NCBI RefSeq assembly: GCF_003334385.1
Contig: NZ_QOWN01000022.1
Length of the DNA stretch: 64,000 nucleotides
Strand: one strand, 5' to 3'
From: Escherichia coli
GTDB lineage: Bacteria; Pseudomonadota; Gammaproteobacteria; Enterobacterales; Enterobacteriaceae
A model generated the notes under the pieces. It searched no databases and was not told where the DNA came from. It saw nothing but the letters and a program-made list of their open reading frames with translations. The position numbers were made by a program, and so were the translations under genes. This document shows, piece after piece, positions 3,400-11,410 of the stretch. Position 1 is the stretch's first letter. Each line of letters starts with the position of its first letter.

Positions 3400-4351
3400 A
3401 CCATTCCTTATGTTTCAGAGGGTTAGCCATGGCACCCAAAATATCAGAAATCACGTTAACAATAATGACCAGTGAGCCACACACCATCACTCCGGCGGAA
3501 ATGGCTGCGTAATCCTGCTGGCGGATGGCGTTAATTAACCAGCGCCCTAAACCCGGCCAGCTAAAAACCATTTCGGTGATCATCGCCAGCGTCAGCATGG
3601 TGGAAAACTGTAAGCCCAGGCGAGGAATAACCGGCGGTAACGCGTTATGCAGAACGTGGCGACGCAAAATAGTAAAGCGCGACAAACCGCGGGTCGCCGC
3701 CGCTTTTACATAGTTCTGGTCATACACTTCGATAGTGCTGATACGCATCAGGCGGATCACTTCAGTTGTTGGCGCAACCGACAGGGTGATCACGGGCAAT
3801 ATCATATGGCGGATTGCGCTCATGATCATTTCATCCCGCCATGGTGAGTCCGAAAGCCAGGCATCAATCAACGCAAAACCGGTAATCGGTTTCACTTCGT
3901 AGAGCAGATCGAAACGCCCTGAAACGGGCAACCAACCTAGCGTGAGTGAACAAAACAGCGTCAACAGAAGCGCCAGCCAGAACACCGGGATTGAAAAGCC
4001 CAGTAAGGCGATGGCGTTGATCAAGTTATCCTGCCACTTATGGCTCGTAATCCCGGCAATCATCCCCACGGGGATGCCAACAATCAGCGCAAAACCGAAG
4101 GCGAGGATGCACAGTTCCATCGTCGCCGGGAAGACCTCTTTTAACTGTTCGGCAATCGGTTGACCGTTAATGCTGGAAACACCAAAATCCCAGTGGATCA
4201 GGCCGTTAAACCAGAACACCCAGGCATTCCACAGTGACGCGCCTTGTAACGGCGCATGAGGGGTGAAATAGCTCAAGCTGAAGCCAACGAAGGTCAGCAG
4301 GAACAAGGTGACAATCAATAACAAAATGCGGCGTAAGGTGAAGATAATCAT
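3386..4351 (-). CDS. sapB: ABC transporter permease SapB
   Basis: 321 aa, DppB/OppB-like permease; 4-nt overlap with sapA. Confidence 0.93.
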
Positions 4352-8370: not shown

Positions 8371-9789
8371 TTACGCGTTTTTCAACATCCACTCAATTTC
8401 TGTTTCTGTGATGAGGCGCTCAAACTGCAACAGCTCATCATTTTTACAGGCGTGATAGACATGGCAGAAGCGTTCGCCTAAATAGCGGCGCAGGTGATCA
8501 TTCTCGATAAACTCACCCAGGGCATCGCTCTGGCGAATCGGAAAGGGTAAGCCTTCCTGTTCCAGCCCGTTGCCTTCGACTTCTTCCTGCAACGGCAGCT
8601 CGTTATCAAGGCCATGCAAAATACCGGCAAAAATCGCTGCCATCACCAGATATGGGTTGGCATCGGCACCCGCCACGCGATATTCCACGCGGTGATTATG
8701 ACGGTCGCCGCACGGAATACGCAGGGCGACGGTGCGGTTGTTATGGCCCCACGACGCCTGCGTCGGCACATACATTCCCGGCTGGAAGCGGCGATACGAG
8801 TTCACGTTTGGTGCCAGCAACGCCATCGACGACGGCATCAGGTCAATCATCCCGGCGAGCATCTTTTTCAGCAGCGGCGAATCTTCGCCTTCCGCGTCAG
8901 AAAGCACGTTCTCGCCACGATTATTTTGCATACTGATATGGATATGCATTCCGCTGCCCGCGTGCTCTTCATACGGCTTCGCCATAAAAGTGGCGTGCAT
9001 CTTATGCTTTTCTGCCATCAGACGCACCAGGCGTTTTAGTGCCAGCGCATCATCGCAGGCTTCCAGCACGTTATCAGTATGGTAAAGGTTGATTTCAAAC
9101 TGACCCGGCGAGGCCTCAGCGACCGCGCCATCTGCCGGAATCAGCTGTAACTGCGCCAGTTCATCAATATCATTGAGCACGTCGGCGAAGTGGTTGAGGT
9201 TATCAACGGAGTAAACCTGGCTTTGTGTATTGCGGTCATCGGTGCCAGGCGCGCAGGGCGGTTGCAGATACCCTTCAGCGTCGCGCTGGCGATCCAGTAA
9301 ATAGAACTCCAGCTCTACCGCTACGACCGGGAACAATCCGCGCTGGCGCAGCTGCTGCCACAGGCGGTTAAGAACGTTCCGCGGCTCAACGTCAAAGGGA
9401 GCGCCATCTTCATCGACCATGGTCAGGAGCATCTGACCGATAAACTCTGGATCGGCGGCAGAAGGAGTTAAGGAACCGAGAACAGGAACACAGGTACGAT
9501 CCGGCTCGCCCATTTCCTGACCCAGACCTGCTTCTTCTACTACGTTGCCCAGAATATCCATTGCAAATACCGAGGCCGGGAAATAACACCCTTTCTCGAG
9601 CTTCTTCAGGCTTGAAACAGGAATACGCTTTCCACGGAAGCAACCATTTAAATCGGTAAGTAAAACATCAACATATTGCGTATTCGGGTAGCGCTCCAGG
9701 TAGCGTTTCACTTCCTGCGTAAAGGCGCTACCCCGCCTCTCTTCTGACTGCTGAACAAAGTTCTCTACTTCAACGATATTGGTTTCCAT
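8371..9789 (-). CDS. puuA: glutamate-putrescine ligase PuuA (glutamine synthetase family)
   Basis: Start set at METNIVEV (472 aa); GS-like catalytic domain text. Confidence 0.93.
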   Translation of the reverse strand: METNIVEVENFVQQSEERRGSAFTQEVKRYLERYPNTQYVDVLLTDLNGCFRGKRIPVSSLKKLEKGCYFPASVFAMDILGNVVEEAGLGQEMGEPDRTCVPVLGSLTPSAADPEFIGQMLLTMVDEDGAPFDVEPRNVLNRLWQQLRQRGLFPVVAVELEFYLLDRQRDAEGYLQPPCAPGTDDRNTQSQVYSVDNLNHFADVLNDIDELAQLQLIPADGAVAEASPGQFEINLYHTDNVLEACDDALALKRLVRLMAEKHKMHATFMAKPYEEHAGSGMHIHISMQNNRGENVLSDAEGEDSPLLKKMLAGMIDLMPSSMALLAPNVNSYRRFQPGMYVPTQASWGHNNRTVALRIPCGDRHNHRVEYRVAGADANPYLVMAAIFAGILHGLDNELPLQEEVEGNGLEQEGLPFPIRQSDALGEFIENDHLRRYLGERFCHVYHACKNDELLQFERLITETEIEWMLKNA

Positions 9790-9832
9790 GATTCTTCGCC
9801 TTTGGTTTGTTTTCCGCTCGTTATCAAAGCGT

Positions 9833-9847
9833 AAAATATAATGACCA
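9833..9847 (+). promoter_or_regulatory. PuuR operator-like box (aaaatataatgacca)
   Basis: 14/15 match to the PuuR recognition 15-mer AAAATATAATGAACA as I recall it from the literature; in the puuA-puuD divergent region. Confidence 0.5.
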
Positions 9848-10000
9848 CCATTCGAATCTGTATGCAAACTAAATGTTTGTCAAATGTTAAATTGAGTTTG
9901 CAAAAATGAAAACCCACTGCTAGATTGAAAAAATATTGAACATAAAGGTCATTTAAAGCGCAGTAATGGCGATAATTTAGTCCACTTTGTGAGATTGAGC

Positions 10001-10765
10001 ATGGAAAATATAATGAACAATCCGGTTATCGGTGTCGTAATGTGCAGGAACAGGCTTAAGGGTCATGCGACCCAGACTCTGCAAGAAAAGTACCTGAATG
10101 CCATCATCCATGCAGGCGGCTTGCCTATTGCGCTACCACATGCGCTGGCGGAACCGTCATTACTTGAACAACTTTTGCCGAAACTCGATGGCATTTATCT
10201 TCCTGGTAGTCCCAGCAATGTGCAGTCGCACCTATATGGTGAAAACGGCGATGAGCCTGACGCCGATCCCGGGCGTGATCTTCTGAGCATGGCGATAATT
10301 AATGCCGCACTCGAAAGGCGCATCCCCATTTTCGCCATCTGCCGGGGTTTACAAGAACTGGTGGTGGCAACCGGTGGTTCGTTGCATCGCAAGCTGTGCG
10401 AACAGCCTGAATTGCTGGAACATCGGGAAGATCCCGAACTGCCGGTGGAACAGCAATATGCACCGTCGCATGAAGTTCAGGTTGAAGAGGGGGGATTACT
10501 GTCTGCGTTGTTACCTGAATGTAGCAACTTTTGGGTAAACTCTCTACATGGACAAGGGGCGAAGGTCGTTAGCCCACGGTTGCGTGTTGAAGCTCGCTCG
10601 CCGGATGGCTTAGTTGAGGCGGTTAGCGTCATCAATCATCCTTTTGCGCTGGGCGTACAGTGGCACCCGGAATGGAACAGTAGCGAGTACGCGCTTTCGC
10701 GTATATTGTTCGAGGGCTTTATCACCGCTTGTCAGCACCATATCGCTGAAAAACAGCGACTCTGA
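10001..10765 (+). CDS. puuD: gamma-glutamyl-gamma-aminobutyrate hydrolase PuuD (class-I glutamine amidotransferase fold)
   Basis: Start set at MENIMNNPVIGVV (254 aa). Confidence 0.9.
   Translation: MENIMNNPVIGVVMCRNRLKGHATQTLQEKYLNAIIHAGGLPIALPHALAEPSLLEQLLPKLDGIYLPGSPSNVQSHLYGENGDEPDADPGRDLLSMAIINAALERRIPIFAICRGLQELVVATGGSLHRKLCEQPELLEHREDPELPVEQQYAPSHEVQVEEGGLLSALLPECSNFWVNSLHGQGAKVVSPRLRVEARSPDGLVEAVSVINHPFALGVQWHPEWNSSEYALSRILFEGFITACQHHIAEKQRL
10005..10019 (+). promoter_or_regulatory. PuuR operator-like box (aaaatataatgaaca), overlapping puuD codons 2-7
   Basis: Exact 15/15 copy of the recalled PuuR 15-mer; a degenerate copy also at 9928-9943. Confidence 0.5.
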
Positions 10766-10791
10766 CCACTACAGTTTAAGGAAATGCAAAT

Positions 10792-11349
10792 ATGAGTGAT
10801 GAGGGACTGGCGCCAGGAAAACGCTTGTCGGAAATCCGCCAGCAGCAGGGGCTTTCACAACGTCGTGCCGCCGAACTCTCCGGGCTGACTCACAGTGCTA
10901 TCAGTACGATAGAACAAGATAAAGTCAGCCCTGCCATCAGTACGCTGCAAAAGCTGCTGAAGGTGTATGGTCTGTCACTCTCGGAATTCTTTTCCGAGCC
11001 GGAAAAACCTGATGAGCCGCAGGTCGTCATTAATCAGGACGACTTAATTGAGATGGGTAGTCAGGGTGTGTCAATGAAGCTGGTTCATAACGGTAACCCG
11101 AATCGCACGCTGGCGATGATCTTTGAAACGTACCAGCCGGGCACAACCACTGGGGAAAGAATTAAGCATCAGGGTGAGGAAATAGGCACTGTACTGGAAG
11201 GTGAAATTGTTCTGACGATTAATGGTCAGGATTACCACCTCGTCGCGGGGCAAAGTTATGCCATTAATACCGGCATCCCGCACAGTTTCAGTAATACGTC
11301 GGCAGGTATTTGCCGAATTATCAGCGCCCATACGCCCACCACGTTTTAA
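10792..11349 (+). CDS. puuR: HTH/cupin repressor PuuR
   Basis: 185 aa; N-terminal XRE-type HTH and C-terminal cupin. Confidence 0.9.
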   Translation: MSDEGLAPGKRLSEIRQQQGLSQRRAAELSGLTHSAISTIEQDKVSPAISTLQKLLKVYGLSLSEFFSEPEKPDEPQVVINQDDLIEMGSQGVSMKLVHNGNPNRTLAMIFETYQPGTTTGERIKHQGEEIGTVLEGEIVLTINGQDYHLVAGQSYAINTGIPHSFSNTSAGICRIISAHTPTTF

Positions 11350-11410
11350 TCTTTTTGTTCTGTAAGCCGGGTAAGCGCAATGCGCCCGGCAATCTATACA
11401 CAAAATCATT

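Follow-up and report, generated by a model that had tools for sequence, protein, structure and literature searches.

The puu locus lies in a 64-kb window (the whole stretch of DNA that was analysed), in which the 601 bases surrounding the three 15-mer copies discussed below share 100% identity with the puuA-puuD DNA of Escherichia coli K-12 MG1655. In the RefSeq annotation puuD, puuR, puuC and puuB are placed on the plus strand and puuA on the minus strand. The genes that flank or follow the regulatory region are:

8371-9789, minus strand: puuA coding sequence (glutamate-putrescine ligase), divergent from puuD, with the start codon at 9787-9789 (RefSeq annotation of the identical MG1655 DNA)
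10001-10765, plus strand: puuD coding sequence (gamma-glutamyl-GABA hydrolase), with the ATG at 10001 invariant across all species and GAGG/GAGA upstream of it (RefSeq annotation)
10792-11349, plus strand: puuR coding sequence (repressor with an XRE helix-turn-helix (HTH) and a cupin domain), in an operon shared with puuD (RefSeq annotation)

The spacer between puuA and puuD comprises 211 bp (9790-10000). The identities of PuuR and PuuD were confirmed by the NCBIfam equivalogs NF007408 (385 bits) and NF008471 (571 bits, profile positions 1-254), respectively. Two changes within the coding regions of the window, a C>T substitution at 10226 (PuuD P76S) and the loss of 1 bp near 12160-12162, which shifts the puuC reading frame, were each seen in 0 of ~4,370 complete E. 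coli genomes carrying the locus.

Both strands of the window were scanned with the 15-mer AAAATATAATGAACA, which we take to be the 15-bp PuuR consensus printed in the 2012 paper on this repressor. An exact copy (15/15) is located at 10005-10019, a copy with one mismatch (14/15; AAAATATAATGACCA) at 9833-9847 and a copy with two mismatches (13/15; AAAAAATATTGAACA) at 9928-9942; beyond these three, no match with up to two mismatches was found on either strand of the 64-kb window. The initial annotation had reported all three: the exact copy was recovered over puuD codons 2-7 (from the second base of codon 2 to the first base of codon 7), the 14/15 copy reappeared at the same position, and the degenerate copy is present with its end at 9942 instead of 9943. 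The exact copy had also been described as overlapping the puuD start codon, which is true of an extended 18-mer (10002-10019) and not of the 15-mer itself, which makes no contact with the ATG. Block shuffles of the window, which keep the local composition, gave a chance expectation of 0.2 matches with up to two mismatches per 64 kb, and shuffling of the AT-rich 241-bp region gave 0.005 expected matches, with three being reached in 0 of 20,000 shuffles. The three copies are clearly non-random. An Rfam search of positions 9000-12000 gave no match at any of them.

The operator unit is captured better by an 18-bp pseudo-palindrome, TGGnCAwTATAwTnnACA, which occupies 10002-10019, and in this register the following boxes were delimited (promoter-relative positions refer to the transcription start site (TSS) at 9933, presented below):

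9830-9847, minus strand: PuuR box 1, TGGTCATTATATTTTACG in the minus-strand reading; contains the 14/15 copy and faces puuA
9925-9942, plus strand: PuuR box 2, TTGAAAAAATATTGAACA; contains the 13/15 copy, occupies -8 to +10 of the puuD promoter, position conserved at -74/-75 relative to the puuD ATG
9967-9984, plus strand: candidate PuuR box 4, TGGCGATAATTTAGTCCA; in the puuD leader at +35 to +52, a conserved block with TGG...CCA arms
10002-10019, plus strand: PuuR box 3, TGGAAAATATAATGAACA; contains the exact 15-mer, spans the TG of the start codon and codons 2-7, at +70 to +87 from the mapped TSS

The 18-bp consensus of the boxes, TGGnCAwwATwwTgnaCA, is an imperfect inverted repeat, and all four boxes share T-G-G-n-c-A-w-w-A in the left half and T-w-T-t-g-n-a-C-A in the right one; the left arm of box 3 is made up of the TG of the ATG and the invariant G of codon 2. 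In a column-shuffle test the dyad symmetry was significant for the four boxes taken together (P=0.0002) and individually for box 3 (P=0.002), box 4 (P=0.005) and box 1 (P=0.012), and not significant for box 2 alone. Such an 18-bp inverted repeat fits a putative dimer of PuuR, a repressor of the XRE-type HTH class; a paper of 2025 (PMC12645834) describes the PuuR site as not palindromic and reports no evidence of a dimeric PuuR. A search for a PuuR structure gave no entry.

A position weight matrix (PWM) was built from boxes 1 and 3 only, leaving box 2 out. With this matrix box 2 scores 16.1 bits and ties for the best independent match in the 64 kb, 0.14 matches being expected per window at this score; the match tied with it (3454-3471) lies within a coding region and is probably due to chance. 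The 18-mer of box 3 reaches 23.8 of a maximum of 29.6 bits, a value that is not independent, as the matrix was partly built from this box. Box 4 matches the matrix weakly (<8 bits) and because of this poor score it is treated as a candidate fourth site; its block in Serratia reads CGTTCATAATTTCGAACA, which is a clear GTTC-N8-GAAC palindrome. Another segment considered as the fourth PuuR site, 9871-9892, matches the reversed 15-mer at 10/15 positions, but it is a poor match to the 18-mer and was rejected; this conserved block more likely holds the puuA -35 hexamer and sites of other factors.

A scan with PuuD, using one genome per species, yielded 38 Enterobacterales loci (including Escherichia albertii, Pseudocitrobacter, Klebsiella, Raoultella, Citrobacter, Enterobacter, Cedecea, Buttiauxella, Yokenella, Pluralibacter, Serratia, Hafnia and Pantoea) and 41 loci of distant homologues. 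Every complete Enterobacterales locus has a divergent puuA and a downstream puuR, and the PuuR proteins are 83-100% identical; PuuR is absent from all 41 distant loci. Box 3 was found at +2 in 37 of the 37 other Enterobacterales loci, all of which have a detectable PuuR except for two truncated ones (L032 and L038). In the PuuR-bearing species box 1 lies at -168 to -171 and box 2 at -74/-75 relative to the puuD ATG. The 41 PuuR-less loci, those of Pseudomonas included, show no PuuR-type box at the gene start, and among these 41 loci matches of at least 10 bits are limited to the upstream spacers of five Kiloniella loci. The copies had initially been called PuuR operator-like, and their reading as PuuR operator sequences is supported.

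An alignment of positions -260 to +48 around the puuD ATG revealed near-invariant islands amid a diverged spacer. These are the box at 9830-9849, the block 9871-9892, TTTGCAA at ~9897-9903, the island 9917-9942 (CTGCTAGATTGA plus box 2), the island 9972-9984 (ATAATTTAGTCCA) and the puuD start (ATGGnnAATATAnTnnACA). The cross-species consensus of box 1, when compared with box 3 in reverse complement, agrees at 15 of 18 positions. The distances between box centres (95 bp for boxes 1-2, 42 bp for 2-4, 35 bp for 4-3 and 77 bp for 2-3) are kept within 1-2 bp across genera, the last being 76-77 bp in all species. Within E. coli, 9991-10030 is identical in 4014 of 4371 genomes vs 3974 of 4372 for the adjoining 10031-10070, a comparison without resolving power. 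Two blocks internal to puuD, 10236-10258 and 10316-10338, are invariant in 36 species, synonymous sites included, and are mutually complementary, forming a 20-bp interrupted helix; a 5' end in the table of Kim et al. 2012 is located at 10249, inside the 5' arm of this helix.

PuuR has been reported to bind the puuA and puuD promoter regions (Nemoto et al. 2012, J Bacteriol 194:3437, as cited in PMC9951944, PMC7901475 and PMC9397018). According to PMC9951944, the same work placed four PuuR DNA-binding motifs in the puuA-puuD spacer, and according to PMC9951944 and PMC7901475 it reported that putrescine releases PuuR. A full-text literature search with the 15-mer or parts of it returned no relevant paper. 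The primers of a PuuR biosensor published in 2023 (PMC9951944) map to 9790-10038 (full puuD promoter) and 9790-10025 (full puuA promoter), and the truncated fragments to 9857-10000 and 9790-9913. The full fragments end just past box 3 (10019), and one primer opens exactly with the reverse complement of TGGAAAATATAATGAACA, which indicates that its authors counted the intragenic copy among the four motifs. In that work PuuR repression in Corynebacterium glutamicum was 36-fold for 9790-10038 vs 6.9-fold for 9857-10000 (PMC9951944). In this comparison boxes 1 and 3 were removed jointly, the leader was changed and the host was C. glutamicum, and the difference would agree with a role of box 1, box 3 or both. 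Judged by its conservation, box 3 is a genuine, deeply conserved operator, and PuuR binding at 10002-10019 itself is taken from a secondary source and from the primer design.

The start of puuD transcription and the promoters of the divergent region were assigned as follows:

9933, plus strand: puuD TSS (Kim et al. 2012, Table S1: NC_000913.2 position 1359076, 5 reads, 68-nt 5' UTR)
9898-9926, plus strand: puuD promoter, with -35 TTGCAA (9898-9903), a 17-bp spacer and -10 TAGATT (9921-9926), proposed from the TSS and from conservation, both hexamers lying in conserved blocks
9855-9884, minus strand: putative puuA promoter, with -35 TTGACA (9884-9879) and -10 CAGATT (9860-9855), in a conserved block

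The puuD TSS was placed in the window by mapping of a 51-nt string, the reads come from non-inducing conditions, and 9933 is the sole puuD start in this genome-wide TSS table. The table of Kim et al. 2012 contains no puuA TSS; the putative puuA promoter would put box 1 at approximately +2 to +19, i.e. at or just after the puuA start. The hexamer TTGAAC inside box 2 was discarded as a puuD -35 element, the closest -10 candidate being ~29 bp off. A -10 hexamer GATAAT (9971-9976) with a start near 9984 was displaced as the main puuD promoter by the TSS at 9933 with its conserved hexamers, and it is kept as a rival.

These assignments bear on the way in which box 3 may act. Promoter occlusion is expected for operators placed at about -50 to +20 of the TSS; box 2 (-8 to +10, over the -10/+1 region) lies within this range and box 3 (+70 to +87) outside it. 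Box 2 is likely to be the primary, promoter-occluding operator. The initial annotation had proposed that an operator inside the first codons would repress puuD through occlusion of the initiation region, which is understood here as PuuR at 10005-10019 blocking RNA polymerase at a promoter just upstream of the start codon. This would suit a -10 element and start within the conserved ATAATTT...CCA block at 9972-9984, which would put the box at approximately +19 to +36, and the TSS at 9933 does rest on 5 reads obtained under non-inducing conditions. However, the only experimental TSS lies 68 nt upstream of the ATG, and the -35 and -10 hexamers preceding it are conserved and properly spaced. The interval 9940-9984 gave no sigma-70-like promoter call, and a start near 9984 would still leave the box past +18. 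Nor could a DNA-bound protein mask the ribosome-binding site on the mRNA. Since box 3 at +70 to +87 is well past an initiating polymerase, occlusion of initiation does not fit and is left unsupported; we regard it as improbable, albeit less so than the other alternatives considered here.

With good confidence, we consider the three 15-mers to be the PuuR operators of the divergent puuA/puuDRCBE region, with box 3 as an auxiliary operator that does not block initiation. Box 3 is probably a downstream auxiliary or roadblock operator that would strengthen repression, a role deduced from its position. In the model that follows from this arrangement, PuuR dimers on box 2 would exclude polymerase from the puuD promoter and PuuR on box 1 would block puuA, while box 3 and the leader box 4 may raise occupancy cooperatively, box 3 possibly by looping with box 2, and/or may block any elongating polymerase that gets past the promoter. 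The centres of boxes 2 and 3 are 77 bp (7.3 helical turns) apart and out of phase, a spacing that does not favour a simple loop; boxes 1 and 2 are separated by 95 bp (9.0 turns) and boxes 2 and 4 by 42 bp (4.0 turns). The puuR gene is located 773 bp downstream of box 3 within the same operon, and PuuR would therefore autoregulate its own synthesis through the boxes of the puuD operon. Putrescine, acting on the cupin domain, would release PuuR from all sites.

Auxiliary operators in or near coding sequences are known from other systems, e.g. gal OI at +53.5 in galE and lac O2 at +401 in lacZ. Box 3 resembles them in being a secondary operator downstream of the promoter, in the first structural gene, that would aid a promoter-proximal operator. 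GalR/HU and the LacI tetramer have been demonstrated to form loops in gal and lac, respectively, whereas in puu looping is putative and the 77-bp spacing of boxes 2 and 3 corresponds to a non-integral number of turns. Another parallel is the PurR roadblock operator situated in the purB coding region. As with box 3, the site lies within coding DNA a long way past the TSS, where a bound repressor could block the elongating polymerase. Unlike puuD, which has box 2, purB is devoid of a promoter-proximal operator, and a roadblock by PuuR is putative. The closest known system is the set of PuuR operators of E. coli K-12 puuA-puuD itself (Nemoto et al. 2012), for which organism, locus and repressor are all the same; what goes beyond that set is the 18-bp dyad register, the conservation in 37 species, the dual-coding PuuD N-terminus and the position relative to an independently mapped TSS. 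The Pseudomonas regulators PauR and PsdR (PMC7901475, PMC10965056) share with PuuR the N-terminal XRE HTH and C-terminal cupin sensor, and likewise repress nearby catabolic genes until the substrate of the pathway releases them, but they are different proteins with different operators.

Box 3 overlaps the first codons of puuD, and selection on the operator was weighed against selection on the encoded peptide or on the mRNA. The N-terminus of PuuD varies by genus (MENIMNN, MENIMYK, MGNIFDK, MVDIFDK, MDNIFDR, MGNIFNR) while the DNA pattern of box 3 is fixed. Each of codons 2, 3, 5, 6 and 7 stands for two to four different amino acids, but of the 18 bases that make up codons 2-7, 10 are invariant in 36 sequences, among them the G at position 1 of codon 2 and the C at position 3 of codon 6. 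Invariant third positions were found in codons 3, 4 and 6 (3/6), compared with 14 of 242 degenerate ones elsewhere in the gene (Fisher p=0.005). Ile4 is encoded by the rare codon ATA in 36 of 36 sequences, a codon used for 11% of the Ile residues elsewhere in these genes. From this pattern of codon use, it is the need to keep box 3 that would have fixed the DNA of puuD codons 1-7.

Codons 2-7 might instead be conserved for translation initiation, either as an unstructured, A/U-rich start or for the N-terminal codon context, rather than for repressor binding. The region is indeed A/U-rich, and the leader with the start region is free of stable predicted structure (z=+0.31), as selection for an accessible start would give. 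The same folding result, with no unusual RNA structure in the leader and start region, means that an RNA-level explanation is not needed. Selection for low structure limits composition and not ten specific bases, and it leaves unexplained the dyad symmetry, the 15/18 identity to box 1 on the opposite strand, and the invariant G of codon 2 and C of codon 6. Conservation for translation initiation is thus very unlikely in comparison with conservation of a PuuR operator.

The initial annotation had offered as its own alternative that the intragenic copy is a coincidence of coding, i.e. that the 15-mer merely encodes ENIMN and is not used by PuuR. AT-rich codons are frequent right after start codons and the exact 15-mer is restricted to Escherichia among the species compared, both of which speak for a coincidence. 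However, it is the box-defining nucleotides that are conserved and not the peptide, codon choices such as those seen at codons 3, 4 and 6 would arise with a probability of ~0.03 (from ATA and NAY codon frequencies), box 3 matches the reverse complement of box 1 at 15/18 positions and the box is missing from the PuuR-less homologues. Since ATA is invariant (36/36) and the DNA is conserved while the peptide varies, this alternative was rejected, and the chance left to it is negligible. Just as hard to credit is the proposal that box 3, through its TATAAT core, supplies the -10 element for an internal promoter (TTGTGA, 16 bp, TATAAT, 9987-10014): it is the sole sigma-70-like match (10/12) in 9750-10060, but shuffles yield 1.2 such matches in this region, TATAAT is found only in Escherichia/Klebsiella-type sequences and is replaced by TATATT in most species, TTGTGA is not conserved as a hexamer, the puuD start codon would be left out of the transcript, and Kim et al. 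2012 list no TSS at this place.

Returning to box 3 as a PuuR operator, we tentatively propose, as a possibility with somewhat less than even chances, that the true operator unit is an 18-bp dyad to which a dimer binds, in place of the asymmetric 15-mer of the databases, and that the start-codon copy is dual-coding, PuuD residues 1-7 being a by-product of the operator. If this is true, a site placed on the start codon would be an efficient roadblock, since a polymerase halted at box 3 would not yet have freed the ribosome-binding site and there would thus be no ribosome to push it through.

The 15-mer copies constitute the already known PuuR operator set. That PuuR represses puuA and puuD through sites in the spacer has stood in textbooks and databases since 2012, and a fragment with the start-codon copy is already in use by engineers. 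The location of this copy, far downstream of the mapped promoter, bears on the trimming of PuuR-based putrescine biosensors. The additions made here are modest: the operator is better taken as a dyad of 18 bp that takes in the start codon, and it would be the operator, not the enzyme, that sets the N-terminus of PuuD across the Enterobacterales.

Two blocks within puuD, 10223-10276 (codons ~75-92) and 10316-10340 (codons ~106-113), were found to be near-invariant at the DNA level, including synonymous sites, in 36 Enterobacterales species, and together they account for 13 of the 17 third positions that are invariant in the entire gene. Positions 10236-10258 are complementary to 10316-10338, which gives a 20-bp interrupted helix, present in both the E. 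coli MFE fold and a 21-species consensus fold, with a variable loop between its arms. In the consensus fold 99.6% of the helix cells are paired and the sole changes are GC/GU, while compensatory covariation is absent; the energy z-score is modest (-1.09). This pairing is a candidate for a conserved mRNA structure located 5' of puuR.

The table of Kim 2012 (a published genome-wide list of E. coli start sites) contains two 5' ends that are assigned to puuR:

10249, inside puuD: 5' end, 18 reads
10548, inside puuD: 5' end, 23 reads

The former falls within the conserved helix, in its 5' arm, and a search for a sigma-70-like promoter at this position gave none. The 5' end at 10249 may be a processing site or, alternatively, a weak internal promoter feeding puuR independently of PuuR repression.

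Two differences set the window apart from other genomes. At 10226, inside the ultra-conserved stretch of puuD, the window has T (changing Pro76 of PuuD to Ser) versus C in MG1655, in each of the 4,372 E. coli genomes that contain the locus, and in 36 of 36 other species; this T is a sequence error or else is unique to the source of the window. In puuC, a 1-bp deletion relative to MG1655 (GGCCCGG to GGCCGG, ~12160-12162) breaks the gene up into two ORFs (11528-12187 and 12121-13110). The deletion is absent from all 4,367 E. coli genomes that matched this stretch; it reflects a frameshift, a pseudogene or an error in the sequencing of the source. In the gap between puuR and puuC, the Rfam model V_AS5 (RF02818) was matched below threshold on the plus strand at 11394-11517; the match covers the whole model with 44.8 bits (E=8e-8) versus a gathering score of 96.

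Within the puuA-puuD spacer, a strongly conserved block, AATGTTTGTCAAATGTTAAAT (9871-9892), lies between both promoters. Its minus strand carries a perfect TTGACA, the inferred puuA -35 element, and the block's TGTT repeats, spaced by 11 bp, resemble an ArcA-type direct repeat. According to a review (PMC9397018, citing Partridge 2006), FNR and ArcA sites have been described for this spacer. A sigma-70-like match (TTGTGA-16 bp-TATAAT, 10/12) occurs at 9987-10014, and its -10 element is the core of the PuuR box overlapping the puuD start codon (10002-10019); the match is confined to Escherichia/Klebsiella-type sequence and is probably fortuitous.

The K. pneumoniae orthologue of 10001-10765, KPN_01020, is annotated as 753 nt versus 765 nt in E. 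coli, which places the annotated start at the codon equivalent to Met5. Since this position of PuuD is Phe in most genera, the upstream ATG, which is also an operator arm, is the conserved puuD start.

The PuuR box matrix, built from the operators at 9830-9847 and 10002-10019, also matched TGGTCATTATTGTTAACG (3454-3471, minus strand, 16.2 bits), within a coding region ~6 kb from the puu cluster. This is probably a chance occurrence, given that 0.14 matches are expected per window. Clear spacer palindromes scoring 13-16 bits with the same matrix, e.g. TGTTCGTTATATTGATCA, were found at five loci of the alphaproteobacterial Kiloniella spp. (L051, L055, L056, L057 and L059), at these positions relative to the puuD homologue:

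about -172 and -301..-324: palindromes of the other four loci
-60: palindrome of L059

A divergent puuA-like gene accompanies these five loci, with 43-44% identity in four of them; that of L059 shows 32% identity and is located on the other side. No PuuR homologue was detected in the retrieved flanks of the five loci. The Kiloniella palindromes suggest that a distant lineage has a related type of operator.
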